Assembly: GCA_900299345.1 (NCBI GenBank)
Contig: OMJM01000031.1
Coordinates: forward strand, 14,788-78,787
DNA from: a bacterium
Lineage (GTDB): Bacteria; Fibrobacterota; Fibrobacteria; UBA11236
Length of the DNA: 64,000 nt
Direction: 5' to 3'
Shown here: positions 5,804 to 60,656 of the stretch, piece by piece
Layout of the letters: every line of letters begins with the position of its first letter
How positions within the stretch are numbered: the first letter of the stretch is position 1
Position numbers and translations under genes: made by a program
The notes under the pieces: generated by a model
Seen by the model: only the letters and a program-made list of their open reading frames with translations
What the model was told of the DNA's origin: nothing
Database searches by the model: none

Positions 5804-6086
5804 AAAGGCGTTCCTTCCGATCTGGTAGTTTGGGGAAGTCTAAGCTGCTTTTTTACCCGAAATTCGTCAATTTTTAATTGAATCGGAAGCAAAACATGTC
5901 AAAAATATCCTAGAAATACGCGCCCCACTGAAAAATTCAAGAACGATAATCTACCAAAGCCCTCATTCAGCGAAATTCGCCAAGCGTGCTGGCGAAAAAC
6001 GTATTATATTCCCTTCACTTGACACCCTCCTTGCCAGCAAGGAACTACAAGTTTTGAATCACAGACGCAATCACGGGGGAGATCCA

Positions 6087-8448: not shown

Positions 8449-8617
8449 ATAACGGAAAATTCAGGATTTCGAAGGTACTTGTAGAATTCTACCCCAAAAA
8501 CCATCACCCGACCTTATATTTGAAGGGCTCGGTTATCCTCCATCTACGTTTTTGGCCGCGATAATCAAGATTATTCCGAAAATTCGGGAAACAAAAATTT
8601 CTAAGGAGAGGGTGAAC

Positions 8618-11056
8618 ATGACTAAGACGATTTTTACGAAATGTTTGGCTGCAGCCTTGATGCTGTTTGCGGTGGCTTCAAGCCAGCCCATCGGCAAAAC
8701 CGGCGCGTGTCCGACTTTAACACGCAGCAATTCCTACATGGGAATCAACCTGGTTAACGGCACGCCGTCAGGCGAGGCGTACGCGTTTACCGGCAAAAGC
8801 TGGCAGGTGACCCCTCGCTCCTGGCAGACCTCTGCGGGACAGATTCAAGACCCCCTGACGCCTGCGCAGTCCGTGAATTGCGTTCAGGTACCTACCGGTC
8901 TGAAGGCGGAAATCATCGCCTCGGAATTGACGCCCGGCAATGGCGCTCCCATGGCCTATCCCATGAATTTCACCTTTGACGAACGCGGCCGCATGTGGGT
9001 TATTGAACCTCGGGATTATCCCTTCATCCATGACACGACCACAGGTTTTCCGACAAACACCTCGAACGGTATTGCTTCGAACCGTCTTGCGGGCAAGGGC
9101 CGCATCCTGATTTTCGAAGACGTCAACGGCGACGGTGCCATGGACAACTTCAAAGTGTTTTACACCGGCTTGGCGATGCCCACCAGCATTGAACTCGTAA
9201 AGAATGGTGTGATCGTCACGGTGCCCCCCAACATCTATATCATTCCCAACGCCAACGACGTGGCCGGTACACCGCAAATCGTCGTCTCGGGCATGGGATC
9301 CAGCAGCAACAACTACGATGCCCATGGTCAGACTAACAGCCTGACCTATGGTCTCGACAACTACGTCTATGGTCACGTGGGCTACAACGGTTGCGGTTCG
9401 CCCGTGGTCGGCTCGAACCCTGGGGTGACCTGCGGTGGCGGTAACATCTGGCGCTTCAAAGCCACCGCGATCGGATCCGATACCAATCAATTCCAGATCG
9501 TTTCCAACAATGGTCCCTCCAACTCCCACGGCATCGGCCAGATGGAAGATGGTCAATGGTTCAAATCCGGCGCCACCCTCTCCTCCCACTCCAACCATCA
9601 GGTTCGCTTCGGTCAGGGCGCCAATGACATCCGTACTTCCACGGGCAGTGGCACGACGGGTACCAATCGCTTCTTCTCTATGACTTCGGACCGCTGGCTG
9701 TGGGAAGGCAACAATGACAGTTTGAGTGGCGGCACATTTGCTCCGGGCGGCTATTTCTCCACGCAGACATCTGCTGTTTCGGGTCACGATTTCTACACCG
9801 CGCGACTCCTGCCGCAACAATACTGGAACCGCTTCGGGTTCGCTTGCGAGGGTGCCAGCGGCCTTTGCAATGAAGACAGTCTTTCAGAAAACGGAAGCAC
9901 TTGGCGGGCCAATCGTATGCTGCCGCCGGGACGCAATCCGAATATCTTCGCCTCCACGGACGCTTGGACTGCACCCCTCAAAGTCCGGACCGGCCCGGAT
10001 GGCGCCCTATATGTGTTGGACTGGTACAACTACCTGTTCCTTCACAACCCTGCGACTCCGGCCACGGATGCCGCTTGGCGTAACCCGCTGCGCGCCAAAT
10101 CCCGCGCCCGGTTCTATCGCATTTTGCCTGCGGATGGTCACACGGACGTGCTACTCAACCTGACGAATGCCACACCGGCTCAGCTCGTGTCTGTTTTCTG
10201 GAGCAGCAATTTCACGTGGCGTTTGATGGCCCAACGTCAGCTTTTGTGGAGGAATTACACCACAGTCGAAAAGGATTCCCTCCTCACGTTGCTTGAAAAC
10301 GTCCTTACTCAACATCGTTATCCTGACACGGTTGGAATCGATGGACCGGTGCTTCACTCCCTCTGGACCTTGCATGGTATGGGCGAATTCAAAACAAACC
10401 CCAACCGTTGGAATCCCATCCTGAAAAACCTGCTGTTACATCCGGCTTGGAGCGTGCGCCGCAACGTGGCGCTTGCCATGCCCCGCACGGCTGCTTCGGC
10501 TCAGGCCATCGTGGATCAATGCGCGGTCAACGATACGCATGCTCATGTGCGCGTGCAGATGCTGGATGCGCTGGCCGCCATGCCGGCACCGAGCGCACCC
10601 GCTCAAATGGTCGCGACCTACCATAATACAGACACCTATTCCACCGGAGCATTTACCAGCGCCGGCGCCAGCAAGGTTGTGGAAATCACCGGCACCACAC
10701 GCCCCACGTCTTGCGCCTCTTATACGGCTCTTAGTGCCCCCGATGCCGCCAAGCCCAATGTGCCGTCTGTGGGTGTCCGCTCAACCGGATCCCTCGAAGC
10801 CCGTAATCATTTGCGCTTCAGCTTGACCCACAATGGTTTCGAGCTCCAAACGCAGCACGGACAACTGCCCTCGGGTGAATTGGTGGTGTATGATCTGCGC
10901 GGCAGCGTGGCATTCCGCTCCACCTACAACTCAGCAACGGGTACTTGGTCCCAGAAGACCGCTTCGGGCCTGAACATGTCCGTCTATTTCTACTCCTTCC
11001 GCGGAGTGAATGGCGACAAGTTCGACGGACGCATTTTCACGAACGAGGAACTGTAA
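8618..11056 (+). CDS. secreted beta-propeller/HEAT-like protein with T9SS-type C-terminal domain; paralog B of 6087..8390
   Basis: GGAG RBS, ATG 8618; signal peptide MTKTIFTKCLAAALMLFAVASS; shares TGACPT, GKGRILIFEDVNGDGAMDNFKVFY, DWYNYLFLHNPATPAT, HEAT-like region and C-terminal ..LVVYDLRGSVAFRS..MSVYFYSF.. with paralog A. Confidence 0.65.
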   Translation: MTKTIFTKCLAAALMLFAVASSQPIGKTGACPTLTRSNSYMGINLVNGTPSGEAYAFTGKSWQVTPRSWQTSAGQIQDPLTPAQSVNCVQVPTGLKAEIIASELTPGNGAPMAYPMNFTFDERGRMWVIEPRDYPFIHDTTTGFPTNTSNGIASNRLAGKGRILIFEDVNGDGAMDNFKVFYTGLAMPTSIELVKNGVIVTVPPNIYIIPNANDVAGTPQIVVSGMGSSSNNYDAHGQTNSLTYGLDNYVYGHVGYNGCGSPVVGSNPGVTCGGGNIWRFKATAIGSDTNQFQIVSNNGPSNSHGIGQMEDGQWFKSGATLSSHSNHQVRFGQGANDIRTSTGSGTTGTNRFFSMTSDRWLWEGNNDSLSGGTFAPGGYFSTQTSAVSGHDFYTARLLPQQYWNRFGFACEGASGLCNEDSLSENGSTWRANRMLPPGRNPNIFASTDAWTAPLKVRTGPDGALYVLDWYNYLFLHNPATPATDAAWRNPLRAKSRARFYRILPADGHTDVLLNLTNATPAQLVSVFWSSNFTWRLMAQRQLLWRNYTTVEKDSLLTLLENVLTQHRYPDTVGIDGPVLHSLWTLHGMGEFKTNPNRWNPILKNLLLHPAWSVRRNVALAMPRTAASAQAIVDQCAVNDTHAHVRVQMLDALAAMPAPSAPAQMVATYHNTDTYSTGAFTSAGASKVVEITGTTRPTSCASYTALSAPDAAKPNVPSVGVRSTGSLEARNHLRFSLTHNGFELQTQHGQLPSGELVVYDLRGSVAFRSTYNSATGTWSQKTASGLNMSVYFYSFRGVNGDKFDGRIFTNEEL

Positions 11057-31173: not shown

Positions 31174-31332
31174 CTACCCGCGCTGCCCTGTTCGCTAAAA
31201 ACCTCAAATTACTTAAGTGGCGAAGTCCCCGTACTGTATCCATGCTGTGGGCGCGTGTCTGGAATGGCTTTTTATGCTAATTTAAAGCACCCTCACAATC
31301 CAAAAGTTGTTACGCACAAAAAGGCAAACCTT

Positions 31333-33810
31333 ATGAAGAAACGCTTGCTTCTGCTCCCCATGTTCGTCGCGGTGGCTGCCTGTAATGGAGGCTTGGGCGA
31401 CAAAGGTCACATGATCGCCCGCATCGATGGAAAGCCCTTCACGGAAGAAGAACTGGATTTGCGGTTGAACACGCTCAGCGATGAACAGCGCGAGGCAATT
31501 CTTGCCAATCCGGAAGAAAAGCGCAACAACTTCGAAAACATCCTGCGCACCCGCCTCTATGCCTTGGCGGGACAACGGGGGGATTTCGCAAATGTGGACT
31601 CCCTCAAGCGGCGTCTCGCGCTGATCGATCAGCGCGTGATGACGCAGTATTATTTCGACGCTTATATCAACGAAAATGGCGGCCAGTCCCGCAAGGATCT
31701 GGAAACCTATTACCGTGCCAACCCCTCAAAATTCACTGGCGACTCCGGCAAGGTTCTTCCTTTTTCAAAAGTGTCCGCACGCGTGGCGGATTCCCTGCTA
31801 TTGTCGCACGCCAACATTGACTCGTTTTATCAGGCCAGTCGTAACATATACGTGGAAAGAGCCAACTGTCTCGTTTCCATCATCCAGACGTCAAAATTGA
31901 AAGACGCCCAAGCCGCTGTGAAGGCCATTCAAGGAGGAATGTCTTTCGGAGATGCCGCTGCCAAATTCTCCACCCACGCCACCAAGATCAGCCAGGGCAA
32001 ATTGGGGAAAGTCGTCAAGGGTGAAGGCAATTACGACATCGGTTCCACCGTCACGGTGGACAGCCTGTTGTTCAATCCCGAAACACGGCTGAAGGAAGGT
32101 CAGGTTTCCGGGCCAATCCGCAAGGATTCTGCCACATTCGTGCTGGTCCGCTCTGATTCTCTCCAGGAGGAAAGATTGCCTCCTCTGGCAAGCGTCGGCG
32201 TGCGCGTGCTGAGCGACTATGTCCGCACTTACAAGGAGCAACTCAGCCAAAATGCGATGGCTGCTCTCAAGGCAAAATACAAGGCGAAAACGGTCTCCCC
32301 CTACAAGAATCCGAGCGAAGCGGACATCAAATCCTACTACGAACAAAACCAGAGCGACTATGAAAGCCCGGAAACGTTTGAGCTTTACCACATCGAAATC
32401 TCAAACAAGGACAAGGTGGCGAAATCGTTCAAGTCCGTGAAGGATTTGAACGGCTTCAAGGCTCTGGCGGCAAAGTTTTCCGAGAATAAGATGACCAAAG
32501 CCCAGAGCGGATACTTGGGGGTAATTAAACGTGACTTCTGCTTACCCTACGGAGTAGGCATGTTGCCGGAACTTTTCACGGCTCTGGACACGATTCGCGA
32601 AGGCAAAATCAGCACGCCGGTGGAAAGCCCCGACACCCAGAAATGGCATTTCTTCTGGCTGGTCAAAAAGGAACCTCGCAAGGTCAAAACCTTGGAACGC
32701 GTCCACGCGTTGGTCATGTCCGACATGGCCGTCAACAGATTGGCCCAGATCAAGCCCACCGATACTCTGGCAGTCTATGGCGACGGCAAGGTCCTGCGCG
32801 AAAGTGATGTGATTTTCTTGAAGGACGAAATCCCCCCGCAGATGCGCGAACGTTACACGCGGGACAATCTCGTGGAATATCTCCTTACTTGGAGACTCGC
32901 CACAGATGAAGCCATGGCGCTTGGTTTGACCGATGAAAAACGCCTTATCGCACTGCGCCTTCAAAATGAGGATGGCTACTGGAGCCGCCTATATCAAGAC
33001 TCAATCATGACGAGATCCTACGAAGAGGACAGCGCCGCACTCGCAAAACTTTACAAGGAAAAACGCGGACTGTTTACCAAGGACAGCGCCGACAACGACT
33101 GGCATCGATACTCGCACGACATTGCGGGTTATCTGATGCTGACCCCGCAAGATTTCAATATCGAATACTACACCAACCCGGAACGTTACCGCCGCGATAC
33201 GGTCCTCCCTGCGCTTTCGTCGGTCATGTTCGAAGTGTTCCAGAACCTTAAGTCTGCCGCATTCCAGCGCCTGGATGAAAAAATCCTCAAAACCCTCAAA
33301 ACCCGGTTTGACGTGCAGATCGTAGATGGAAGCCTGAACCAACCCTCACTTGAGCCAGTGGGTGAAACCTACAAGAAGGCGCAAAATCTGCACTACGATC
33401 GCAAATTGGATCAGGCCCTGGGCCTTTACGGCAAGCTCCGCGATCAATTCCCGGCACGCACGGGACTGCAAGACTCGGTCTGTTTCGGAATCGCACAGAT
33501 TTATATCGAACAGGAGCGCTACCAACAGGCCTTGGCGGAATACCGCAGGGTCAGCTACCTCTATCCGAACAGTGCGAACAATTACAAGGCGATGTTCATG
33601 GTTGGGTTCATCCAGTCCGAACATCTCAAGAATGATTCCGCCGCCGTGCAATCTTTTGAGAGCATGCTGGCAAAATATCCGAATACCGACCTATCCGACG
33701 ATGCGGATTGGATGATCCGGAACATCCGCAGTGGCGGGAAACTGATGCCTGTTCTGGAAGGCGATAGCGCTTCAACACCCGCAGATTCGACAAGTGGCAA
33801 GAAGAAATAA
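31333..33810 (+). CDS. lipoprotein peptidyl-prolyl isomerase/chaperone (SurA/PpiD-like) with C-terminal TPR-like domain
   Basis: Lipobox LLPMFVAVAAC; SurA-N-like region; parvulin-like segments (..KAIQGGMSFGDAAAKFS.., ..KALAAKFSENKMTKAQSGYLGVIKRDF..); C-terminal TPR-like helices (YKKAQNLHYDRKLDQALGLYGKLRDQFP..YIEQERYQQALAEYRRV). Confidence 0.7.
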   Translation: MKKRLLLLPMFVAVAACNGGLGDKGHMIARIDGKPFTEEELDLRLNTLSDEQREAILANPEEKRNNFENILRTRLYALAGQRGDFANVDSLKRRLALIDQRVMTQYYFDAYINENGGQSRKDLETYYRANPSKFTGDSGKVLPFSKVSARVADSLLLSHANIDSFYQASRNIYVERANCLVSIIQTSKLKDAQAAVKAIQGGMSFGDAAAKFSTHATKISQGKLGKVVKGEGNYDIGSTVTVDSLLFNPETRLKEGQVSGPIRKDSATFVLVRSDSLQEERLPPLASVGVRVLSDYVRTYKEQLSQNAMAALKAKYKAKTVSPYKNPSEADIKSYYEQNQSDYESPETFELYHIEISNKDKVAKSFKSVKDLNGFKALAAKFSENKMTKAQSGYLGVIKRDFCLPYGVGMLPELFTALDTIREGKISTPVESPDTQKWHFFWLVKKEPRKVKTLERVHALVMSDMAVNRLAQIKPTDTLAVYGDGKVLRESDVIFLKDEIPPQMRERYTRDNLVEYLLTWRLATDEAMALGLTDEKRLIALRLQNEDGYWSRLYQDSIMTRSYEEDSAALAKLYKEKRGLFTKDSADNDWHRYSHDIAGYLMLTPQDFNIEYYTNPERYRRDTVLPALSSVMFEVFQNLKSAAFQRLDEKILKTLKTRFDVQIVDGSLNQPSLEPVGETYKKAQNLHYDRKLDQALGLYGKLRDQFPARTGLQDSVCFGIAQIYIEQERYQQALAEYRRVSYLYPNSANNYKAMFMVGFIQSEHLKNDSAAVQSFESMLAKYPNTDLSDDADWMIRNIRSGGKLMPVLEGDSASTPADSTSGKKK

Positions 33811-33862: not shown

Positions 33863-35281
33863 ATGAACCCACTTTTACAACGTTCTTTGCTTAAAAAACT
33901 CGGGTTTGCAGCGGTTGGGGTCACGTTGGGCGTTTTGCTGCTCAACAGTTGCGACGACATCGGATATAGCCCTTACGCACCGGTCATCACCTACAAGAAG
34001 GTGGCCATTTCTGCCTTCAAAAACACGGCCATTCTTCCCGATTACGTGGTGGCTTCGGGTGACGGGGTGATCGACGGGTATTCCGTCAGCCCTGCCCTTC
34101 CGACGGGTCTGACATTGGATGCAAAAACCGGCACCATCTCGGGCACTCCTACCGCCGGAACCCCCTGTCAGAACTACGTCGTCTCCGCATCTGGCCCCAG
34201 TGGCCACGATACGTCAACCGTAACGATCTGTGTGAGTGACAGCGCGAACACCTATCGTGTCAACAAAGGCCCTTTCCCGCCCTTCATTACTTACAAACGG
34301 CTTTCGATTGAGGCCGTTAAAAACAAGACTATTCGTTCGGATACTGTGATCGATACTACTGGCGGCGCCATTACCAGTTATTCAGTTACTCCCGCACTGC
34401 CGGCGGGCCTGGCCTTGAACACCGCCAACGGCGTCATTTCCGGAAAACCCACCACCACGGATACTGCAGCGCGCCTCTACACGATTACCGCAACCGGCCC
34501 CAGTGGCACGGGTGACGCCCACATAGGAATTTGTATTGCCCCCGACAGCCTGCATCCTTGCGTTGCCGATGTGCGTCCGCCCTCCGTCTATTATAACGAA
34601 AGCTTCATCTGGACGACTCCTGGAGTGGCGCTTGTACCCGACAGCGCCAACTCGTTCGCAGGACGGATTACCAAGTTTACCGTGTCTCCCGCATTGCCGG
34701 CAGGCATCAGCCTGGATTCCGTCAAAGGCATCATTTCCGGAACCCCGACGGCTACTGTCACGGCGCGTGATTACCACGTTCTGGTGACCGGACCATTCGG
34801 CATTGACTCGTCACAAATCATCTATATCGCTGTTTTCGACAACAATATTCCGCAAGCCCTGTTGAAAAAAGGAAAGGCGCGTTTCAGCGGTGTTTGTTCC
34901 GGCTGTCACGGTCAATTAGGTTTGGGTGCACCGCCTGATGTTCATCCGGGTCGTGGCGCCACTCCGCCACTGGCGCATTCCGACTTCCTGATGGCCAATC
35001 GCCATCGTCCCATCCGCATCCAAATGATGGGACTTCCCAATGCCATCGACTCCTTCGCGCCCATTATCGTGGCCGGTGACACATATGATTCTCACATGCC
35101 CTCCGTCGGAGGAAATGATTCAGACATTGCCTCTGTACTGACCTTCGTCCGAGCCATGTTCAATGGAGCCACGGATTATATAAGCGTCAGTGAAGTGGCT
35201 CATGTCCGTGACAGCGTGGCCGCATTGGATTGTGATCGCGATGGCCAGCGTGACGGTTGCGGTATCGACACGACGCACTAG
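33863..35281 (+). CDS. lipoprotein with four He_PIG (putative Ig) repeats fused to a C-terminal mono-heme cytochrome c domain
   Basis: Lipobox LLLNSC; four repeats of ..Y(S/T)V(S/T)PALPaGL.LD...G.ISGTPT.. (He_PIG signature); single CSGCH heme-binding motif followed by HMPSV (possible Met ligand). Confidence 0.7.
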   Translation: MNPLLQRSLLKKLGFAAVGVTLGVLLLNSCDDIGYSPYAPVITYKKVAISAFKNTAILPDYVVASGDGVIDGYSVSPALPTGLTLDAKTGTISGTPTAGTPCQNYVVSASGPSGHDTSTVTICVSDSANTYRVNKGPFPPFITYKRLSIEAVKNKTIRSDTVIDTTGGAITSYSVTPALPAGLALNTANGVISGKPTTTDTAARLYTITATGPSGTGDAHIGICIAPDSLHPCVADVRPPSVYYNESFIWTTPGVALVPDSANSFAGRITKFTVSPALPAGISLDSVKGIISGTPTATVTARDYHVLVTGPFGIDSSQIIYIAVFDNNIPQALLKKGKARFSGVCSGCHGQLGLGAPPDVHPGRGATPPLAHSDFLMANRHRPIRIQMMGLPNAIDSFAPIIVAGDTYDSHMPSVGGNDSDIASVLTFVRAMFNGATDYISVSEVAHVRDSVAALDCDRDGQRDGCGIDTTH

Positions 35282-35294
35282 CATTCAGAATGCA

Positions 35295-35321
35295 AAAGCC
35301 AGACCGAATCGATCTGGCTTT
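35295..35321. terminator. hairpin usable as bidirectional terminator (lipoprotein gene on + / tRNA-Gly on -)
   Basis: 9-bp stem AAAGCCAGA/TCTGGCTTT with 9-nt loop, T/A runs on both sides. Confidence 0.4.
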
Positions 35322-35397
35322 TGGAGCGGATTATCGGACTCGAACCGACGACCATCTGCATGGGAAGCAGAAGCTCTACCAACTGAGCTAAATCCGC
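35322..35397 (-). tRNA. tRNA-Gly (anticodon CCC)
   Basis: Reverse complement folds as GCGGATT-TA-GCTC-AGTTGGTA-GAGC-T-TCTGC-TTCCCAT-GCAGA-TGGTC-GTCGG-TTCGAGT-CCGAT-AATCCGC-T-CCA; 76 nt. Confidence 0.85.
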
Positions 35398-45482: not shown

Positions 45483-46730
45483 CTAGGGTGTTTTTAAGAC
45501 TACCGCTCGCGCCCGCCCGGTAGGGTGCAGCTGCGAAATCTTCCGCCCCTTCACATCAATCGGGGCCGTTCCATCGTCCAAAAGTTTTTTCAAAGCTGCT
45601 TTTCTAGTGGCGATGGAAACAGGAGGCTGCGTCGCACCCAAGGTAACCGCGGTAGCGCCGGATTTCTGGGTTTCATAACTCAACTTGGCCCAGTTGGCGG
45701 AACGAACCACATTGGAAAGCTGTGATTCATCGAGTACTCCCTGATAGTAGGCGTCGCCCGTGAAAAAGGAGCGACCCATGTAAGCGGTGCGGGCCACAAC
45801 TGCAAGCGCTGCGGTAAGGGTACCTGCCTGAGCCTGTACACCATTGTGATATACCACGGTCGACATGCCGTTCAACGTAACGAGATAATGATGCCATTGA
45901 TTCACGGTCAGCACGCCGGTGGCGGTGGTCATACCCAGCGAAGTTCCCCCGTTACGAAACTCCAGCGTCAAATTATTGGTGGTGCCATTGCGGAAAAGTT
46001 CAATATTCCCGTTGGCATTTGCGCCCGCGGCGGCTTCAAACAGTCGTGAATAGGCTCGATTGGCATCGGTGGGATAAGCCCAAACGGAATAGCTGAATCC
46101 GCTGCTGTAATCCATGTACCCTCCGCCCAACGTCAGGTGATCACTGGTGCTTCCCGCTGCGCCACCGCGCAAGGTATCCGCCAGACCAATAACTCCGGCC
46201 TTGGCGGCATAACCACCCGGAAAATTCACAGGCGTTGCAGCATTACCCCCCTGCACGGCATTGGGACGCGCAGCAGTTCCAGAAGCGTCCCCCATATGCC
46301 ACACACCTTGAAATCCATTGGCCGCAGAGAAAACCTGTCCGCCGTTGGAACTGTCACCCGCACCATTTTTTCCCCAGCACATCCGCAAGGTGGTGGTGCT
46401 GTTTCCCAACACAGTGTCCAGCAACACCCAGAATTCCGCGGCCTTGGCCGCGCTATCCCAGCGCTCGCGTTGATGGGGAAACCTTGATGTTCCATCTGCC
46501 GTGGTGAAGCGAATGTCAGCACCATTAATTGCCGCCAGCGAAAACACGTCAGCATTTAAGGGCGTGAGACGCACCAGCAAGGGAAATTTGCCGACACCCC
46601 CGGTGACATTTGCACCCGTAGAAGTTGTATTCACAGTGATCATCTTGTAATGCGACCATGTCCCATAATTCTCCTGCGCCCCGGCGGCGAAAGCACAGAC
46701 GAGCAGAAAACGGATCATCGACTGAATCAT
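45483..46730 (-). CDS. secreted DUF2341 + LamG (concanavalin-A-like lectin) domain protein
   Basis: Signal peptide; YGTWSHYKMITVNT...FPLLVRL...IRFTTADGTSRFPHQRERWD..AEFWVLL = DUF2341 signature; downstream LamG/Laminin_G_3-like region; paralogous to the N-terminus of 46743..49244. Confidence 0.6.
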   Translation of the reverse strand: MIQSMIRFLLVCAFAAGAQENYGTWSHYKMITVNTTSTGANVTGGVGKFPLLVRLTPLNADVFSLAAINGADIRFTTADGTSRFPHQRERWDSAAKAAEFWVLLDTVLGNSTTTLRMCWGKNGAGDSSNGGQVFSAANGFQGVWHMGDASGTAARPNAVQGGNAATPVNFPGGYAAKAGVIGLADTLRGGAAGSTSDHLTLGGGYMDYSSGFSYSVWAYPTDANRAYSRLFEAAAGANANGNIELFRNGTTNNLTLEFRNGGTSLGMTTATGVLTVNQWHHYLVTLNGMSTVVYHNGVQAQAGTLTAALAVVARTAYMGRSFFTGDAYYQGVLDESQLSNVVRSANWAKLSYETQKSGATAVTLGATQPPVSIATRKAALKKLLDDGTAPIDVKGRKISQLHPTGRARAVVLKTP

Positions 46731-46742
46731 GACAGGTAACCT

Positions 46743-49244
46743 TTAGAGTGACAGGATGATTTTGGACGCTGCAAGCACTTCGGGCTTCCCTGTGCCATCC
46801 GAAATCACCTGCACGAAGTAAACTCCCGGAACCGGGAAGCCACCCTCGGAATGACCATCCCACGACACCTGTGTCGCCCCACTTTTAACATGACGACTCC
46901 AGACCGAACGACCATGCACATTGAGCACGGAAACAAGAACCGGACCGATTCCATTTGGCAGACGGATGGTGATCGAAGAAAGCCCATTGATATCTATCCC
47001 ATGTAAATTGCGGATCTGCGCTTCTATTGAAGATGAGGATATCACCCAAAGCGTCAAAATCGCGGTCGTGGAACCCACTGCATTGGTCGCCGTGATAGTG
47101 AAATCCGAGTAAGACGGGGTGGATGCCGTGGGCGTTCCAGAAATAATTCCCGTCAAGGTATCGAATGCAAGACCCGCAGGCAATACGGGGGTGATACTCC
47201 ATCGCGTCACTGTTCCTGTCACCGTCGGAGTATTCGCGGCAATGGTCTGACCTTGCGTGTACGTGGCTGGATTGGCGTTATAAAACAGTCCTGATGGAGC
47301 GCCGTACACCGTAATGCTGATCGTGACGGTTGCGGAACCCGCCGCATTGGTGGCAGTGACTGTATAGGTTTTCGTGGCCACAGTAGATGTGGGTGTTCCA
47401 GAAATCACACCTGTAGTGGCATTGAGACTCAAGCCCGCCGGTAGTGCTGGGTTCACCGCATAGGTCGCCACAGTACCCGTCACAGTCGGGTTGTTGGCGG
47501 TGATCGCGATGCCGCGCGGGTAGTTCGCCGTGGGAGTGGAATAGGAAAGTCCCGTGGGAGGTGCCAACACCGTGATGTTTACAGTTGCTGTCGTGGAACC
47601 TGCAGAATTACCGGCAGTCACGATATAATTGGTCGCTGGTGAGACTGCCGTGGGCGTTCCCGAGATAACACCCGTCGAGGTGCTCATCGTCAATCCGGCG
47701 GGAAGCGCGGGGGAAATCGAATACGACGTCACCGTGCCCGTCACCGTAGGACTATTCGCAGTGATGGCCGTATTGAGACCATAAATCGCGGGAGATGACG
47801 AGTACGACAATCCCGTGGGTGCGACCAGGCTTCCGTTCACCGCTATGGATAGTTGCGCAGTGGCGGAACCTCCAGCGTTGGTGGCAGTAATCGTATACGT
47901 CGTGGCGGATGCCGTGGCTGTCGGTGTTCCGGAAATCACACCCGTCTGCGTGTCGAAGGACAATCCGGCGGAAAGCGCCGGAGAAATCGAATAGGATGCC
48001 ACGCTGCCGCTCACCCGAGGGGTGCTGGCTGGAATGGCATAACCCACCGTATACACAGCGGGATTGGGGGCATAAGAGAGATTGTAAGGTGCGATGGCTG
48101 CCGTGGCGCCCAAAAGCACAAAAGAGGAATCCGTGCGCTGAGTCTGATAGCTCAATTTGATCCAGTCCGCAGACTGCGCCCTGCCCGCAAGCTCCACTTC
48201 ATCCATTGTACCGTTGAAATACTGATCATAGGGGGCCGACGAATCCATCTTTCCAATCGTGAATGCATCGGGCCAGACTTGATCCAAAGATGTCATGCCG
48301 GTCGCCGAATTGGTGGCCCTTTGTGTGCCGTTGATGTATATGATTCTGGAATTCGCCGTGAGCGTGGCGGCCACATGGTACCACGTATTGTTCGTCGCGG
48401 TGACTGTGGAACTGAGCGTTGCATCGGCACCACCATCCAGGGAATAAAACAACGAAATAAGACCCGCATTGTTGGTCACCAAGGCATATTGACGATTCGA
48501 TCCGTTACTGTAGGTATACCGGCCGGCCATGCACTGGACGGGATTGGTATTGCTGGTATTGGTTCCGGTGCGACGCATCCAGAAGGAAAGCGTCACGCCA
48601 TCGGTGCTGTTCATGTCGAGTCCACCATTGACATTTGTGGCAGTGAGGTATTTTCCATTCAGACCCGTGGCACCCTGGCCCGAACCATTGGCAAGGTTGA
48701 CCGCCTTGCCAATCATTCCATCCACGGAAGCAGGGCTGTTCTGCCATTTCGCTTCGAGATTACTGGGAGTTGCATCCGCGGATGGCGTTGAACTTTCCCC
48801 CAAATGCCACACTGCACGGAATGAATTGTCCCTGTTGAAGACCGCCGTTCCGCTCGAACTGTCCGGGGCACCGGTCTTGGACCAATAAATCTGGAGAGTG
48901 GTCGTATCGTTCCCTTTGACGTTCGGAACACGCACCCAAAATTCCGCCAACTTATTGGTTACATCCCAACGCTCACGTTGATAGACCAGATGCGTGGTGC
49001 CTCGGGCAAAACGAATGTCGAATCCATTCGCAAGCGCCCCTGTAAAAATGTCATTGGCGTTTGTGGCGTTGAGACGCACAAGCACGGGAAAGTCCGTTTG
49101 GGCGTTGGTAACACGAGCTCCACCAGCCTGATTACGGGTATCGATGACGATGGGTTTGTAGTACCCCCATGTCGTATAATCTTCCGCAGACACCAACGTG
49201 GATAAGCCAACTAGAAAACCGAAAAAACAAGCTTTGATGGACAT
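46743..49244 (-). CDS. secreted DUF2341 + LamG + six He_PIG repeats + T9SS-type C-terminal domain protein
   Basis: DYTTWGYYKPIVIDT..FPVLVRL..IRFARGTTHLVYQRERWD..AEFWVRV (DUF2341); six repeats ..SYSISPAL.AGL.....TGVISGTPTA..; C-terminus ..GGFPVPGVYFVQVISDGTGKPEVLAASKIILSL. Confidence 0.65.
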   Translation of the reverse strand: MSIKACFFGFLVGLSTLVSAEDYTTWGYYKPIVIDTRNQAGGARVTNAQTDFPVLVRLNATNANDIFTGALANGFDIRFARGTTHLVYQRERWDVTNKLAEFWVRVPNVKGNDTTTLQIYWSKTGAPDSSSGTAVFNRDNSFRAVWHLGESSTPSADATPSNLEAKWQNSPASVDGMIGKAVNLANGSGQGATGLNGKYLTATNVNGGLDMNSTDGVTLSFWMRRTGTNTSNTNPVQCMAGRYTYSNGSNRQYALVTNNAGLISLFYSLDGGADATLSSTVTATNNTWYHVAATLTANSRIIYINGTQRATNSATGMTSLDQVWPDAFTIGKMDSSAPYDQYFNGTMDEVELAGRAQSADWIKLSYQTQRTDSSFVLLGATAAIAPYNLSYAPNPAVYTVGYAIPASTPRVSGSVASYSISPALSAGLSFDTQTGVISGTPTATASATTYTITATNAGGSATAQLSIAVNGSLVAPTGLSYSSSPAIYGLNTAITANSPTVTGTVTSYSISPALPAGLTMSTSTGVISGTPTAVSPATNYIVTAGNSAGSTTATVNITVLAPPTGLSYSTPTANYPRGIAITANNPTVTGTVATYAVNPALPAGLSLNATTGVISGTPTSTVATKTYTVTATNAAGSATVTISITVYGAPSGLFYNANPATYTQGQTIAANTPTVTGTVTRWSITPVLPAGLAFDTLTGIISGTPTASTPSYSDFTITATNAVGSTTAILTLWVISSSSIEAQIRNLHGIDINGLSSITIRLPNGIGPVLVSVLNVHGRSVWSRHVKSGATQVSWDGHSEGGFPVPGVYFVQVISDGTGKPEVLAASKIILSL

Positions 49245-54703: not shown

Positions 54704-55717
54704 CTAGTGCACGTACACCTTTTGCAACACGGTGTTTTTAGCGGAAGAAATCCGGACGATGAACATACCGGATTTCGCCAAGGCAAGGCGCTGCTCCGCG
54801 ACGGGACCGCCTTCCCCGCGCACAGAACGGATGGTTTTTCCGGACAGGTCCATGACCTCGACGGAGTATTTTCCCGGAACCGGCACGCGAATCAGCAATG
54901 AGTTTCGACCGCCTTCGACGGCATAGCGGGATTGCGATTGGAGGGCGCCATTGATGGCCGTGCCACCGCCAACGCCGTCCATGTTACGAATCTTGATGTT
55001 TTTGAACTGGGAAACCTTGACGGTTTCGTATTGAAGCGCGATAAGTCCAGGAGAGGTCGCAGCCACGTGCTGCGCGTTGGTCAGCTTGAGGGTGGTGCAG
55101 GTTATTCTCGTCGAGGGGCTCGCGAAGCCGTTGGGAAAATAGGACATGGTGATGGAGTCATTCACGATTTTGTAACTCAAATCCATGAAGTTGGTGGTGT
55201 TGAGATGGCACGAAGCAGGAGCGGTCGCCAAGGTCGTGTTCCCGCTATTGTAAACGTTACCGGTATATGTGGGGCCCAAATCGATTTGAGGGCCGAAAAC
55301 CCGGTATCCCTGACTCTGGCCTCCGCAAAGGTTGGTAATGGTTCCGCTACCGCAAAACCCACGCATGTTGAAACCGGAGTTACCGCTCGGACTACTCGTC
55401 ATACGCCAAGAGAAACGAAGCTCAATGTTCGCCTGTGTGGGAGATGCCTGAAACTTCCAAACAAGATTGGTCCATCCAGGATCTCCAGTGTGAGCCAGTC
55501 CATCGGTGGTTATCATGGCGCTGTCCGTGCCTGGATTGGCGATTCCCCAATTGGCGGTATGCGGCCAGAACTGGGTGGTGTCCAAAGTTCTCCTGTTCCA
55601 CAGGTCGTGGTACAAGGTGTCATTTTGCCAGATGGAATCCGGGATGGCGGAAAAAATCGAGGTGGCCCATACGAACGACACAAACAACGCTGAACCGAAA
55701 AGTCTTGTGGTTTTCAT
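54704..55717 (-). CDS. secreted DUF1080 (3-keto-disaccharide hydrolase-like, LamG fold) protein with T9SS-type C-terminal domain
   Basis: Signal peptide; NSGFNMRG..GYRVFGPQIDL and LQYETVKVSQFKNIKIRNM match DUF1080 blocks; C-terminal tail KYSVEVMDLSGKTIRSV...GMFIVRISSAKNTVLQKVYVH. Confidence 0.7.
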   Translation of the reverse strand: MKTTRLFGSALFVSFVWATSIFSAIPDSIWQNDTLYHDLWNRRTLDTTQFWPHTANWGIANPGTDSAMITTDGLAHTGDPGWTNLVWKFQASPTQANIELRFSWRMTSSPSGNSGFNMRGFCGSGTITNLCGGQSQGYRVFGPQIDLGPTYTGNVYNSGNTTLATAPASCHLNTTNFMDLSYKIVNDSITMSYFPNGFASPSTRITCTTLKLTNAQHVAATSPGLIALQYETVKVSQFKNIKIRNMDGVGGGTAINGALQSQSRYAVEGGRNSLLIRVPVPGKYSVEVMDLSGKTIRSVRGEGGPVAEQRLALAKSGMFIVRISSAKNTVLQKVYVH

Positions 55718-55743: not shown

Positions 55744-57156
55744 TTAAATGGCCACCTGAACGCGTAGCACGTAATACCAGGAGTCCTTCTGCAACATGAC
55801 ATCACCGTAGGACCTGTCAAAACGATTGGTAAACAACTGCATGATTTGCATGTGGTCACTGGATGCCTTGGCGGTGACGGAAAGTGATTTCCATAAGGAT
55901 TTAGTCGCAGTAACCGACCATCTAAAATCATCGCCGTCCACGGCGTCGCGAGCGGATAGGCCGAGGTTCGTATTCCCATCCAAATACGGAGCTGCCACGG
56001 GACCGGTGGTGCTATTCGCCACTTTGAAATCCGAATTCAGGTAGGGATTTTTCCAATATTCCCCTTCCACGCTCAACAGATCGAGCACGCCCCACGTCGG
56101 AATGTTCAATCCCAGCATGATCGGCATCCTCTCCATGGGTTTATCGTAGAATACGGGATAATTTTGCACTCCCAACATCGCCCATTCGCCGTAAAGTTTC
56201 AAGTCGACGGCATTTCCGAAAATAGGCTTGAAGTCGATGGAAAAACGGGTCATCAGCATCTGCCCCTTCAGCGAATAATAACCCAAGCCAGAGACTCCTG
56301 AGGGAAGCGCCTTGCTCGTGTCGTTCAACACCTGATACACGGAGTCGGCGATGGCGGAATCGGCGCCCGAGTAGTAACCGGGAATGGTGGTGTATTTTTT
56401 TCCGTTGGAATAGGTAAAATACGCGTTCAACGGTTCATTTTTATTGGTCTCCAGCTCCGATTGAACGGGGATCAGGCGAAACAGGTTGACTCCAGCCCCA
56501 AATTCAAGAACAGAATTGATCCGATAGCTTGTGATATACGCCAGGCTGAAATCCCCCAGCGGGAAGCTGGCGTTGGAGCTTATCAAAAAGAGGTCGTTCT
56601 TCCATTTCCCCCCTGCGGCGGTCTTGCTCAAAATACCGCCTAAAATATTGGCGTGTGCCGCGTTGACGACGTCAAACGGCGAGTTCAAAACAGTATTGGG
56701 ATAGGGAGTGGAACGGAAAAGATATTCCCCCAAATCTTTGGAATCCGGATTGTATTTGTAAGGAAGGGCGCCAAAGGTGATCTCGAGAGCCGGAGCTTTC
56801 ACATCGCCCCACTTGTAGGAACCCGAAGCCTGAACCATTGATACGGCGGGGAAAAGCTCGTTTTGAAAGGGATATGGAAACGTACCGGAATTGTGGGGAA
56901 GGGAGAAAACCGTGGCCCCCAAACCAAAAGTCAAATCGGTTCTCTCATTCAGAGTCGCGCCCCCGAAAACCCAGCCGGTGGGCCTTATCATAAACATGGG
57001 GGCAAAGGATTCCGTTGGCACAGAACTGATCGGCGAAAAAGTCTGAAACTGCTCCAAGGCGACGCCAGCACTAACAGGATGCACCACCACATCTGCGGGC
57101 GCTGGCAATACCGCAAGGGATGCCAGACCCAAAATGGTACTCAGGGCTTTTTTCAT
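55744..57156 (-). CDS. putative outer-membrane beta-barrel protein, tandem paralog 2
   Basis: Signal peptide MKKALSTILGLASLAVLPAPA; alternating amphipathic strands; C-terminus SWYYVLRVQVAI shared with the upstream paralog; ATG immediately follows the upstream TAG. Confidence 0.5.
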   Translation of the reverse strand: MKKALSTILGLASLAVLPAPADVVVHPVSAGVALEQFQTFSPISSVPTESFAPMFMIRPTGWVFGGATLNERTDLTFGLGATVFSLPHNSGTFPYPFQNELFPAVSMVQASGSYKWGDVKAPALEITFGALPYKYNPDSKDLGEYLFRSTPYPNTVLNSPFDVVNAAHANILGGILSKTAAGGKWKNDLFLISSNASFPLGDFSLAYITSYRINSVLEFGAGVNLFRLIPVQSELETNKNEPLNAYFTYSNGKKYTTIPGYYSGADSAIADSVYQVLNDTSKALPSGVSGLGYYSLKGQMLMTRFSIDFKPIFGNAVDLKLYGEWAMLGVQNYPVFYDKPMERMPIMLGLNIPTWGVLDLLSVEGEYWKNPYLNSDFKVANSTTGPVAAPYLDGNTNLGLSARDAVDGDDFRWSVTATKSLWKSLSVTAKASSDHMQIMQLFTNRFDRSYGDVMLQKDSWYYVLRVQVAI

Positions 57157-58458
57157 CTAGATGGCCACCTGCACGCGGAGCACATAGTACCAGGAACCCT
57201 TGCGAGACATCACGTCGCCATAAGACTTCGAAGGAAAGCCGCCCACATTGAATTCCATCATTTGCAAATGATCATTTGCCGCCTTGGCGGTCAACGAAAT
57301 TGTTTTGGCCAAAGAGCGGGTGGCCGAAACTGACCATCTCAAATCATCATCTTTCACAGCATCCGTCGGCTTCAAATCCAGCTGCTTGTAAGAGTTGGTA
57401 TAATCCAAGTTCGGCGTTCCAGAACCATTATTGATAATGCCCAGTGTGGAATTCAGATAGGGATTCTTCCAATATTCCATTTCCACGTTCAGCATGTCGA
57501 GCACCCCCCAGGTGGGGATGTTCAATCCAACCATCACGGGCAGCCTGTCCATCATCTTGTCGTAATAACGGGGAAAATTCTGGACGCCCAGCAGGGTTCC
57601 CTCCCCGTAGAGCTTCAGGTCTGTTCCAAGAACAGGCTTGAAGTCGAGAGAAAACCTCGCCATTATCATCTGCCCTTTCAGCGAATAATAGCCCGAGCTG
57701 TCAGGATAGCGGTTGGTATCAGCCTTCCACGTGGTGATTGACGGCTGAACGGGTATCAGACGAAAAAGATTGACTCCGGCACCCAACTCCAAAATCGGAC
57801 TGATCCGATAACTGGTCACATAAGCCAGGCTGAAATCGTACAAGGGGCTGGATTGGGTGGCGCTGGTGATCAACAGATCATTTTTCCAGCTTCCCCCAAA
57901 CATGTTTTTGCTCAACATCAAGGCCAGGATATTCGCCTGGGCCGAATTGACCAGATCGAAAGGTGAATTCAACACGGTGTTGGGATAGGGCGTGGAACGG
58001 AATAGGTATTCGCCCAGATTCTTTGCATCCGGATTGTACTTGTAGGGCATTTGCCCGAAGGTCAGCTTGAGCGCGGGCTCTTTCAAATCCCCCCACGTAT
58101 AGGAACCTGATGCCTGTACCAAGGCCACTGCCGGGAACAACTCAGTTTGGTAATTGGTGCTCCTCGGATATGAACCGCTGTCATGCGGCAGTGAAAAAGT
58201 GGTCGCTCCGATTCCCATGACGAGGGAGATTCTGTCGTTGATGGTGGCGCTTTCAAAAATCCACCCCGTGGGCCTCACCATGAGCAAGGGTTCGGCAGGA
58301 TGGGCCAAGTTCAAATAACTATTCGCATTGTAAAGCTGGAAAGCTTCCAGAGCCACTCCCGCATTCACGGGGTTTCGCACCACATCCGTCGAGGCGGCTG
58401 AAAACATGAGGAGCGGCAAACCGGAAAGGATCCACTTCATGCCAGACTTCATTTTCAC
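57157..58458 (-). CDS. putative outer-membrane beta-barrel protein, tandem paralog 1
   Basis: Signal peptide; collinear similarity to 55744..57156 (..RPTGW.F..AT.N.R..L..G.GAT.FSLPH.SG..P.. ; ..LFRSTPYPNTVLNSPFD.VN.A.ANIL..); same C-terminal SWYYVLRVQVAI. Confidence 0.5.
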   Translation of the reverse strand: MKMKSGMKWILSGLPLLMFSAASTDVVRNPVNAGVALEAFQLYNANSYLNLAHPAEPLLMVRPTGWIFESATINDRISLVMGIGATTFSLPHDSGSYPRSTNYQTELFPAVALVQASGSYTWGDLKEPALKLTFGQMPYKYNPDAKNLGEYLFRSTPYPNTVLNSPFDLVNSAQANILALMLSKNMFGGSWKNDLLITSATQSSPLYDFSLAYVTSYRISPILELGAGVNLFRLIPVQPSITTWKADTNRYPDSSGYYSLKGQMIMARFSLDFKPVLGTDLKLYGEGTLLGVQNFPRYYDKMMDRLPVMVGLNIPTWGVLDMLNVEMEYWKNPYLNSTLGIINNGSGTPNLDYTNSYKQLDLKPTDAVKDDDLRWSVSATRSLAKTISLTAKAANDHLQMMEFNVGGFPSKSYGDVMSRKGSWYYVLRVQVAI

Positions 58459-58537: not shown

Positions 58538-60406
58538 TCAACGGGTAAACTTCGCCTGAAGAATTCCCTTTTCCAGATCACTGGGGACCTGTACGCTGGA
58601 TTCGTTGCCACGGTAAGACCAGACTTCCCTACCCTGCAGATTGTATAGCGTGACGCCGGAATATCCTTGAGGGATATTCACCATCGACCCGGGCATGGCG
58701 GAAACCATCAGCTTGCCTTGCTTGACGGAACGTCCTGTCTGCCAGATGCCTGTAGGCACGGGCACGACCTGCGAGCGCGGCGTGGCCAGCGGGGTCAGTT
58801 GGGCATGGGTGAGCATGAAAATGTCATGCCATTGAAAAGCACCACTGCTGCTCGACGACAACACAATGGGATACAGGTTGCCGTAAGAGTCCTCTGACCA
58901 AGTGGTGATTCCGTTGTGGTTTTGATCTCCACTGAAGGCGTAACTGGTGGGAAAATTCCCAACAAATACTGGAGCAACTCGATCGACCTTGGCTGCGAAA
59001 AAACGATTCCGCACGCCGTTTACGGCTCCATTGATATCGCTAATAATCATGTATCCATAAAACGGAGAGGAGACGTCCCCACGAATCACAGGGCTGATAT
59101 TTCCGACATTTGCAGACGAGTTCGCAGCAGAATTCGCAAGGTTATCGGTGGCTCCCGTGGCATGTCCGGTATACCACGCGGCGTTTTGAAAATTCGCGCA
59201 CGTGTAGGTTCCATTATAGGCAGTTCCTGTCACCGTACGAGTATACGGGGTGATGAAGCCCGCCGTGCCAGTGGTACCGATATTGGTGTTGGTCGATGTG
59301 TAACCTCCGCCCGCAGAGGTACTATCCAAATTGGCACCCACATGACAGGGACCTTCGATACCGGAGCTGTTGGCTCCCGCAGTTGAATTATCTCCGCCGT
59401 TATTCCAGCCATAGTTTCTGCCCGGAAGAATGTGGTTAATCTCTTCCCAACGGCTCTGTCCGGTTTCGGCGCCGTACAACTGGTTCGTTAAATAATTGAA
59501 AGACAACGAGTAGGTGTTGCGAAAACCGAAGGCATACACTTCCTTCCTGACGGCAGGATTGCTCACGTTGTACCAAGGATTATCGCTCGGGATCGTATAG
59601 ATTCCGCACGGAAGATTCGTGTTGGAAGGAGCCGTGTAGGCGGTGGCTCCACAAGCTCTCGCCGGATCCACTTGAGAAACATTGATGCGAAGGATCTTCC
59701 TGCCAGTGATGGTACTGTCCCAACTGGAAAGGTTGTATGCGTCAGTGGTGATGTACAGCATACCGTCGTTGCCGAAAACCATATTGCTGGAGCCATATCC
59801 TGTCCCATGAAAAAGGCGGATCATTTCAGTATCGCGTGCTACGCTCTTGAAATCGGCTGACATGATGTAACGATCCACGACCACAATGGCAGTGGGATTG
59901 TTGGGGCCATCGTTGTTTCCGCTGGGTGTCGTGCCCGCTCTGTATTGACTGGCAACAGGGTACTTGTTGTAAATGACATAGAAATAGTGGTTGGTTTTGA
60001 AATTCGGATCAAAACTGCCACCCAACGCTCCAAATTCCCAACCCTTCATCACCCATGTGTTGAAATCAGCCACCTGAGTGCGTGTGTACTTCTTGACAGT
60101 ACCGTAAGAGACGGTGGTGTCCACGGCAACACCCTGCGCGTTGGTGTCAGGATAAAGTGTCCACATGTAACCAAAGTACCCGACCACAAGGAAATGTTTG
60201 GGCTTTCCAGGAACTTCCCACATACCCACATAGGGCAGCTTGTCCTTCCTGAAGCTCAATCCTGCCTGGGTTGTGTCATAGATGGGGGTTACCGAAACGC
60301 CGGTGGGCAAGCTCTGTGCGGAAGACGTGGCCACGAGAATGGCGACTGCTGCGAAAAGCGACAAGGTAATGCGTTTACGAAATGCGGAGTCAAGAAAATT
60401 TTTCAT
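58538..60406 (-). CDS. secreted PQQ-dependent sugar dehydrogenase-like beta-propeller (soluble glucose/sorbosone dehydrogenase family) with T9SS-type C-terminal domain
   Basis: Start at MKNFLDS (60406) with signal peptide; GSDH-family blocks: HGTGYGSSNMVFGNDGMLYITTD, GRKILRIN, EVYAFGFRNTYSLSFN, GRNYGWN; C-terminal tail ..YSGVTLYNLQGREVWSYRG...GILQAKFTR. Confidence 0.65.
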   Translation of the reverse strand: MKNFLDSAFRKRITLSLFAAVAILVATSSAQSLPTGVSVTPIYDTTQAGLSFRKDKLPYVGMWEVPGKPKHFLVVGYFGYMWTLYPDTNAQGVAVDTTVSYGTVKKYTRTQVADFNTWVMKGWEFGALGGSFDPNFKTNHYFYVIYNKYPVASQYRAGTTPSGNNDGPNNPTAIVVVDRYIMSADFKSVARDTEMIRLFHGTGYGSSNMVFGNDGMLYITTDAYNLSSWDSTITGRKILRINVSQVDPARACGATAYTAPSNTNLPCGIYTIPSDNPWYNVSNPAVRKEVYAFGFRNTYSLSFNYLTNQLYGAETGQSRWEEINHILPGRNYGWNNGGDNSTAGANSSGIEGPCHVGANLDSTSAGGGYTSTNTNIGTTGTAGFITPYTRTVTGTAYNGTYTCANFQNAAWYTGHATGATDNLANSAANSSANVGNISPVIRGDVSSPFYGYMIISDINGAVNGVRNRFFAAKVDRVAPVFVGNFPTSYAFSGDQNHNGITTWSEDSYGNLYPIVLSSSSSGAFQWHDIFMLTHAQLTPLATPRSQVVPVPTGIWQTGRSVKQGKLMVSAMPGSMVNIPQGYSGVTLYNLQGREVWSYRGNESSVQVPSDLEKGILQAKFTR

Positions 60407-60656
60407 GCGCTCTCCTTTGAATTCTATGCAAGCCGGAAAAGAGTTTCGGCGTACAGCAATGTATTGTGGCTTTTGGTTCCCCGCTGGCAAAAAAAGACAA
60501 AGCGGGAAATCCCAAACACTAACGGGCCTTTAAAAAGATCCCGACATATTTGATTTGTTTGGGAGAATCCGAAGCACGCGTTCGATCGCGGAGGGAAAAT
60601 CGCTCGGGATAATGTCACAATGGCCGCGGATATTGGCCAAAAGTGACTTTTATCCT

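Follow-up and report, generated by a model that had tools for sequence, protein, structure and literature searches.

What partner a cytochrome c may serve when it is carried at the end of a row of immunoglobulin (Ig)-like domains is the question raised by a gene at 33863..35281, on the forward strand of a 64,000-nucleotide stretch of Fibrobacterota DNA (contig OMJM01000031.1; hereafter the window). A preliminary description had read its product as a lipoprotein with four He_PIG Ig-like repeats and a C-terminal cytochrome c, possibly the electron acceptor of heme-less dehydrogenase-type propellers encoded nearby. Apart from the repeat count, this architecture of anchor, Ig stalk and monoheme His/Met cytochrome c holds. 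As to function, we rate at somewhat better than even the reading suggested by sequence comparisons and structure models: the protein, lipid-anchored and raised on an Ig stalk, would use its one heme to take electrons from heme-less propellers of the pyrroloquinoline quinone (PQQ) type and hand them on.

The gene is one uninterrupted open reading frame (ORF) of 472 codons plus stop, with an ATG start and GAGG upstream, which bears out the continuous frame described earlier and rules out a misjoined one. The identical protein is present on 20 public contigs, among them GCA_003455335.1, and a mate in its 90% cluster is HAO98484.1, from a metagenome-assembled genome named 'Fibrobacteres bacterium'. 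One source already labels the protein 'mono/diheme cytochrome c family protein'. Its parts are listed here with reference to two alignments, A1 of 10 family members and A2 of 50 relatives of the cytochrome domain, to AlphaFold2 (AF2) models and to RpNiR, the copper nitrite reductase of Ralstonia pickettii.

33863..35281, + strand: complete gene in a single ORF, encoding a lipobox signal peptide, three He_PIG Ig domains and a class I cytochrome c
33863..33952, + strand: signal peptide with lipobox-like LNSC, Cys30 as the predicted lipidated residue, then DDIGYSPY (read from the sequence)
33971..34246, + strand: He_PIG Ig-like domain 1 (residues 37-128; PF05345, AF2 beta-sandwich, motif YSVSPALPTGLTL)
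34271..34552, + strand: He_PIG Ig-like domain 2 (residues 137-230; PF05345, AF2, motif)
34565..34846, + strand: He_PIG Ig-like domain 3 (residues 235-328; PF05345, AF2, motif)
34847..35227, + strand: class I (Thermus c552 / RpNiR-type) monoheme cytochrome c domain (residues 329-455; phmmer, AF2, Foldseek)
34895..34909, + strand: heme-attachment motif CSGCH (C345, C348, H349; residues 345-349), invariant in A1 and A2
35096..35098, + strand: Met412, predicted sixth (distal) heme ligand, in YDSHMPSV (invariant column M88 of A2)
35228..35278, + strand: C-terminal tail with a Cys pair (C457, C466), a 17-residue peptide

The C-terminus is a bona fide class I cytochrome c of the c552/RpNiR type, with predicted His/Met ligation of the heme. 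Four lines of evidence settle this identity. A phmmer search of the PDB matched residues 332-451 to the cytochrome c domain of RpNiR (E 2.8e-10), placing CSGCH on CSVCH and YDSHMP on YDSVMP, Met412 thus corresponding to the RpNiR Met. An exhaustive phmmer search of 1.84 billion representatives with the cytochrome domain returned 796 relatives at E<=1e-3; the absence of any relative in a word-indexed search with the 148-residue domain alone was an index artefact. The invariant positions of A2 are the two Cys, the His and the Met, plus three glycines and one proline. Finally, the isolated domain was modelled by AF2 from the 50-sequence alignment with a predicted local distance difference test (pLDDT) score of 88.8 and a predicted template-modelling (TM) score (pTM) of 0.84, and Foldseek superposed it on the RpNiR cytochrome domain (root-mean-square deviation 1.4 A over 121 columns, 36% identity) and on Thermus cytochrome c552 (1C52; 1.9 A over 125 columns, 29% identity). 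The AF2 model of the whole protein, made with a 10-sequence alignment, left this domain unfolded (pLDDT ~30). The class I domain with a single CSGCH and a downstream Met in HMPSV was thus read correctly at the outset, and the structure prediction proposed as a check gives a confident cytochrome c fold. The Pfam check gave a divided answer: the whole protein stays below threshold for both PF13442 and PF00034, but among the 50 aligned phmmer relatives 47 match PF13442 and 44 match PF00034 (E<=1e-3 for PF13442). The isolated domain reaches 21.3 bits on PF00034 (gathering threshold 21.3) and 21.7 on PF13442 (threshold 27). A six-frame translation of the 64 kb contains just two CxxCH strings. One is the CSGCH of this gene and the second falls in a 36-codon antisense ORF; among real ORFs this gene alone has a CxxCH.

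More specific assignments of the domain were tried and rejected. The cytochrome cL / MoxG model TIGR03872 gave 16.4 bits against an equivalog cutoff of 147.8, over the heme-motif region (residues 331-353) only, and the PVC-type heme-binding domain TIGR02603 gave no match at E<=1. ActE, the monoheme subunit of alternative complex III (ACIII), was reached only at phmmer E 0.32-0.97 and Foldseek E 0.06-0.3 (TM 0.40-0.47). Nor does the protein have the sorting domain of cargo of the type IX secretion system (T9SS): TIGR04183 gave no match at E<=1, the tail being the 17-residue Cys-pair peptide. As for heme supply, no cytochrome c maturation genes were found in the 64-kb window; a HemJ-type protoporphyrinogen oxidase (UPF0093, E 3.9e-41) is encoded at 618-1148 on the reverse strand, so that the organism makes its own heme.

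The stalk contains three He_PIG modules and not the four first counted. The Pfam family PF05345 matches three stretches (99.3 bits, E 1.7e-28, gathering threshold 24 bits), so that this check confirmed the module type. The Ig motif of the preliminary description occurs at exactly three sites, YSVSPALPTGLTL at residue 73, YSVTPALPAGLAL at residue 173 and FTVSPALPAGISL at residue 272, each followed by GxISGxP. Three confident beta-sandwiches are modelled by AF2 (residues 40-125, 140-226 and 240-324, pLDDT ~80-90), and the best Foldseek matches of the Ig array are cadherin, titin and other Ig tandem arrays (E 1e-13). A fourth module is excluded because the ~300 residues from Cys30 to the cytochrome are already filled by three. 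The count is also lower elsewhere in the window, in the DUF2341 + Laminin_G_3 protein at 46743-49244 on the reverse strand: GxISGTP stands at residues 434, 524, 611 and 698, giving four repeats where six had been announced. This protein has a T9SS-like C-terminal domain (CTD) tail (20 bits, cutoff 23) and adjoins a shorter DUF2341 + Laminin_G_3 paralogue at 45483-46730.

The protein is probably lipid-anchored via Cys30, judging by its N-terminus. The signal peptide ends in LLLNSC; compared with the lipobox [LVI][ASTVI][GAS]C, positions -3 and -1 fit and the Asn at -2 is non-canonical, which makes lipidation probable rather than proven. The signal peptide and the Cys of the anchor described earlier therefore stand, Cys30 being invariant in 10/10 family members, while its -2 residue is off consensus. 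Equally invariant in A1 are D32, G34, S36 and P37. In the relatives the residues ending in this Cys are VSC, SSC, LSC, NSC, ISC, SNC and LNC, and acidic residues follow directly (CDD or CND).

Homologs with the same fusion do exist: some 10 relatives at 45-60% identity to the protein make up a small family, as yet uncharacterised, in which the Ig modules number two or three. Common to its members are a lipobox Cys followed by (N/D)D.G.SPY, 2-3 He_PIG modules, the cytochrome domain and usually a C-terminal Cys pair. In the members with two Ig modules (P0004, P0008, P0020, P0021, P0024, P0025) the alignment has a clean one-module gap that corresponds to Ig domain 2 of the window protein. Identity to the latter is 50-60% in the cytochrome domain and 37-61% in the Ig domains, the cytochrome being at least as similar as the Ig domains in most members. 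Because of this conservation and of the one-module length difference, the family would fit a functional head on a length-variable spacer. A metagenome search from four sequences brought up a single true locus of the family, L089, besides NirK-like fusions; among the matches listed (L001-L080), a contig profile search returned generic He_PIG proteins only and no cytochrome-bearing family member.

Two genomic contexts are found for the family. In type A (the window, P0004/L081, P0010/L086 and P0003/L087), the gene lies 17-65 nt 3' of a lipoprotein gene, which in the window is the following:

31255..33810, + strand: lipoprotein with PpiC rotamase domains and a BamD/YfiO-like TPR region, the conserved upstream neighbour (Pfam and NCBIfam)

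Here 52 nt separate the stop codon of the PpiC/TPR gene from the ATG of the cytochrome gene, and the same adjacency is present in L081, L086, L087 and L112-L115. Beyond the PpiC/TPR gene lie TamB and Omp85 genes, divergent on the opposite strand; genes for NDK, a hexapeptide transferase, DUF218, diacylglycerol kinase, SurA and L21/L27 follow. The 851-residue PpiC/TPR product has two PpiC-type rotamase regions fused to TPR, a chaperone architecture that looks unusual. Directly 3' of the cytochrome gene, L086 and L087 have an inserted gene for a Cu P-type ATPase whose N-terminus contains YHS/HMBD domains (positions of the ATPase/cytochrome genes: L086, 10001-11396 and 11481-13787; L087, 1725-2678). 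The L086 orthologue is frameshifted (396 residues plus a 79-residue ORF), probably through an error of the nanopore assembly.

In type B, which accounts for six of the ten family loci (P0025/L085, the P0020 contig, P0002/L088, L089, P0024/L111 and P0008/L110), the gene adjoins a GSDH propeller of 600-680 residues (PF07995, 54-66 bits) that has no CxxCH. The propeller gene is directly upstream on the same strand in five loci and divergent in one. Downstream there are usually a BNR-like propeller, MoaA and MoeA; individual loci add SCO1/SenC (P0020 contig) or a NarM-like gene and a small cytochrome c (L085). In L089 the gaps between the cytochrome gene and its two propeller neighbours are 128 and 19 nt. 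The BNR/Ycf48-like propeller conserved directly 3' of the type-B cytochrome genes (L089, 3205-4404; L085, 11315-12457; L088, 2032-2679) has WTG.QLVAVG..G.ILTSPDG..W repeats and a CTD-like tail, and its weak NCBIfam matches point to the Bacteroidota BamI.

The heme-less dehydrogenase-type propellers reported in the window are real. Two in tandem on the forward strand (6054-8390 and 8552-11056) belong to DUF7133 and exceed the TIGR02604 cutoff (133 and 141 bits, cutoff 122); this model bears the name 'PVC-type heme-binding CxxCH protein', and neither protein has a CxxCH. Their tail, a beta-sandwich, differs from the heme domain that a relative (P0208) has at the same place. On the reverse strand, a GSDH at 58538-60490 (68.6 bits) and a weak DUF7133 match at 61773-63722 also lack CxxCH, as do two 3-keto-disaccharide-hydrolase proteins and a GFO/IDH/MocA oxidoreductase. 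The GSDH of the window and those of type B are remote relatives of solved PQQ glucose/aldose dehydrogenases, and PQQ dependence of the propellers is putative. An orthologous relationship between the window GSDH and the type-B neighbours was not supported, only the tails being alignable. The reverse-strand genes 54704-55717, 58538-60490, 60657-61766 and 61773-63722 form a cluster of secreted sugar-oxidation type, with two 3-keto-disaccharide hydrolases, the GSDH and the weak DUF7133 protein. Between them on the same strand lie tandem paralogues at 55744-57156 and 57157-58458 (470 and 433 residues), with signal peptides, a common C-terminus ...SWYYVLRVQVAI and no Pfam or NCBIfam match.

What links the cytochrome to such propellers, besides the type-B neighbourhoods, is the occurrence of both on one chain. 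Relatives of the cytochrome domain are fused in cis to DUF7133 (P0208), to DUF7133 and 3keto-disac_hyd (P0255) and to GSDH (P0220). A similar pairing is seen in P0054 (753 residues), which joins eight He_PIG modules to a small, different cytochrome c. Its gene, in an apparent operon (L116, 5235-10262; also L117), overlaps by 4 bp an MxaJ-like (SBP_bac_3) gene of a PQQ-alcohol-dehydrogenase operon, a position that we take, from mxaFJGI/xoxFGJ, to be the cytochrome cL slot. P0054 is an independent, convergent case of a He_PIG-cytochrome c protein. Sugar-oxidising systems of the DUF1080/3-keto-glycoside kind have been placed in the periplasm (PMC9007349).

From these elements a mechanism can be proposed. 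The protein would be exported by Sec and anchored by an acylated Cys30, its three tandem He_PIG domains forming a semi-rigid stalk of perhaps ~10 nm, by analogy with other Ig arrays. The distal heme domain, presumably loaded and ligated by His349 and Met412, would be held above a membrane, on whichever face the anchor places it. There it may take single electrons from GSDH / DUF7133 beta-propellers of the PQQ-sugar-dehydrogenase type, which carry the same cytochrome domain in cis in other phyla, and could pass them to a membrane-bound or copper-containing acceptor. The length of the stalk, two or three modules, would set the reach.

Several observations weigh against this proposal. The propellers of the window are 23-28 kb from the cytochrome gene and the link there is co-residence only; in the window and in three other lineages the gene stands beside no dehydrogenase, its surroundings being PpiC/TPR and then a TamB-Omp85-SurA-NDK housekeeping block. 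The propellers end in T9SS-like tails, mostly sub-threshold (13-22.6 bits, cutoff 23), which would put them outside the outer membrane, so that a periplasmic cytochrome might never meet them. The lipobox is non-canonical in its Asn at -2, and the whole protein falls below the Pfam gathering scores (18.3 vs 27 for PF13442, 17.5 vs 21.3 for PF00034). The neighbour-joining tree is star-like, with type B mostly clustering and type A split in two, and for this reason moved orthologues are not distinguished from paralogues with different partners. The cytochrome domain, moreover, is just as close to those of NirK-type multicopper fusions, and its type is fused to NirK-like multicopper domains equally often. 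The role of electron acceptor suggested at the outset thus gains real, though indirect, support from the type-B neighbourhoods, the cis fusions, the P0054 operon and the lack of a CxxCH in the propellers of the window, while the distance and the T9SS-like tails of the propellers in the window speak against it.

A rather unlikely alternative is a tethered respiratory cytochrome c that is unrelated to the propellers and would carry electrons from a quinol-oxidising complex to a NirK-type nitrite reductase, an N2O reductase or a heme-copper oxidase. Such a carrier would then act much as cytochrome cy does at its membrane, or as do the cytochromes that serve as lipoproteins in organisms without soluble carriers. 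The closest solved relatives are consistent with it, being the cytochrome domain of Cu-nitrite reductase and Thermus c552, a donor to terminal oxidases. So are two relatives fused to multicopper-oxidase-type domains (P0178, P0207), the Cu P-type ATPase directly downstream in L086 and L087, and the SCO1/SenC gene near the P0020 gene and the NarM-like gene with a small cytochrome c in L085. Some uncultured Fibrobacterota (UBA5070) have, moreover, been described as denitrifying lignocellulose degraders (bioRxiv 10.1101/2024.07.11.603112). Yet no nirK, nosZ, oxidase or bc/ACIII gene was found in the window or in the ~10 family loci, and copper genes are present in only 3/10 loci. Nor does this role exclude the propellers as donors: electrons from dehydrogenases could reach such acceptors through one and the same carrier. 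We consider very improbable a role without electron transfer, that of an adhesin or surface-display protein whose cytochrome-like domain either binds heme or a ligand in order to sense or scavenge it or is a decaying relic. For it speak the typical place of He_PIG domains, in adhesins and surface proteins, and the sub-threshold Pfam cytochrome profiles. Against it, the CxxCH and the distal Met are invariant in family members of ~50% identity and in 50 wider relatives, the cytochrome domain, 50-60% identical to that of the window protein, is conserved in most members no less than the Ig domains, and the confident fold model superposes on functional cytochromes.

The tails of the propellers bear on where the electron transfer would occur. 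For the C-terminal ~80 residues of the propellers (those of the window and the type-B GSDH and BNR proteins), TIGR04183 is the only or best NCBIfam match in eight of 10 tails. Its cutoff of 23 is passed by 54704-55717 alone (31.2 bits); the L085 GSDH comes to 22.6. Within the cluster of 54704-55717 the T9SS tails of two other members are sub-threshold and 60657-61766 has no TIGR04183 match, and a T9SS sorting domain is the only NCBIfam match of the tail of the tandem DUF7133 pair (13.5 bits, sub-threshold). As T9SS cargo the propellers would be located outside the outer membrane. There are then three options: the cytochrome is itself a surface lipoprotein, it never meets the propellers, or sorting is not what the tails are for. 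The first option, a lipoprotein flipped to the outer leaflet of the outer membrane and forming an extracellular redox module with T9SS-secreted GSDH/DUF7133 proteins, is improbable at present. It is hinted at by the acidic residues after the Cys, which we take to be reminiscent of a Bacteroidota lipoprotein export signal, and by the position of the gene among outer-membrane-biogenesis genes. The type-B gene is also flanked by CTD-like tails (GSDH, 22.6 bits, cutoff 23; BNR-like propeller, 21.6 bits on PF18962). Against it, all CTD matches but one fall short of the curated cutoff, nothing that would conduct electrons onward across the outer membrane is evident and surface export of a folded holo-cytochrome lipoprotein is undocumented in this phylum. 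The full form of this idea, with AA12-like heme-less propellers and the surface cytochrome making up an extracellular sugar-oxidising module of lignocellulose-degrading Fibrobacterota, is as speculative. If true, it would be a bacterial, trans-acting counterpart of the fungal cytochrome-linked PQQ pyranose dehydrogenase, in which the Ig stalk sets the distance from the outer membrane to the secreted enzymes.

Among known systems, RpNiR (PDB 3ZIY; Pseudoalteromonas homologue 2ZOO) is the best match in both sequence and structure and has the motifs CxxCH, PPLA-SDFL, RI-L-GL and YDS-MP in common with the window protein. In these three-domain heme-Cu nitrite reductases the cytochrome is likewise a tethered one-heme electron-transfer domain (PMC6278305, PMC13324648). 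The tether differs, being a cupredoxin enzyme there and an Ig stalk with a lipid anchor here; Pfam finds no copper-binding domain in the window protein. Thermus thermophilus c552 (PDB 1C52) is the same variant of the class I fold, a monoheme His/Met electron shuttle, but is a soluble periplasmic protein of 131 residues with no anchor and no Ig domains. Tethered monoheme cytochromes c include Rhodobacter cytochrome cy, the Bacillus lipoprotein c551, the ACIII subunit ActE and Neisseria c5. They too have a class I heme domain held at the membrane by an N-terminal anchor and a spacer, but the spacer is a short flexible low-complexity linker or a transmembrane helix and not a set of folded He_PIG domains; the matches to ActE-type chains (E 0.3-1) are weak and the relatedness is not significant. 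The proposed role as dedicated c-type acceptor of PQQ-type propellers recalls cytochrome cL / XoxG (MxaG) and the cytochrome domains fused in cis in PVC-type 'membrane-bound dehydrogenase' proteins (TIGR02604 with TIGR02603), although the window protein belongs to neither family and no dehydrogenase gene is at its locus. A further analogy may be drawn with the fungal AA12 PQQ pyranose dehydrogenase (PDH) of Coprinopsis cinerea, an extracellular GSDH-fold propeller of a lignocellulose degrader paired with a cytochrome, which is however a b-type AA8 domain in cis and not a c-type domain on a separate lipoprotein. The tethered-cytochrome design is thus already known, and folded He_PIG modules as the tether are what differs. 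Combinations of He_PIG with cytochrome c are rare but recurrent in the sequences compared, with at least three architectures: the present family, the P0054 group and cyt c-He_PIG-fn3 (P0194, P0196). A literature search found no description of a He_PIG-cytochrome c fusion.

Cultured Fibrobacterota are known as fermentative fibre degraders, and the conservation of an anchored c-type cytochrome is a sign of redox chemistry, in the periplasm or at the cell surface, in uncultured members of the phylum. It also suggests a solution for a large class of 'orphan' propellers of the DUF7133/TIGR02604 and GSDH kinds. In Planctomycetes and Verrucomicrobia these proteins include a heme domain, which those found here lack and which an Ig-stalked protein may provide in trans. 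To space an electron carrier with folded Ig modules of defined total length (2-3 here, eight in the unrelated PQQ-alcohol-dehydrogenase operon) is uncommon and experimentally tractable, and the design offers a route to distance control in interprotein electron transfer.

Downstream of the cytochrome gene one further element can be read from the sequence:

35294..35322, unstranded: perfect 10-bp hairpin AAAAGCCAGA / TCTGGCTTTT, terminator-like

A promoter and terminator scan gave nothing exceeding shuffles, and its T-run rule for terminators did not select this hairpin. The element lies between the stop codon of the cytochrome gene and a convergent tRNA-Gly(CCC) gene (35322-35397), abutting the 3' end of the tRNA, and looks like a terminator shared by the two genes.

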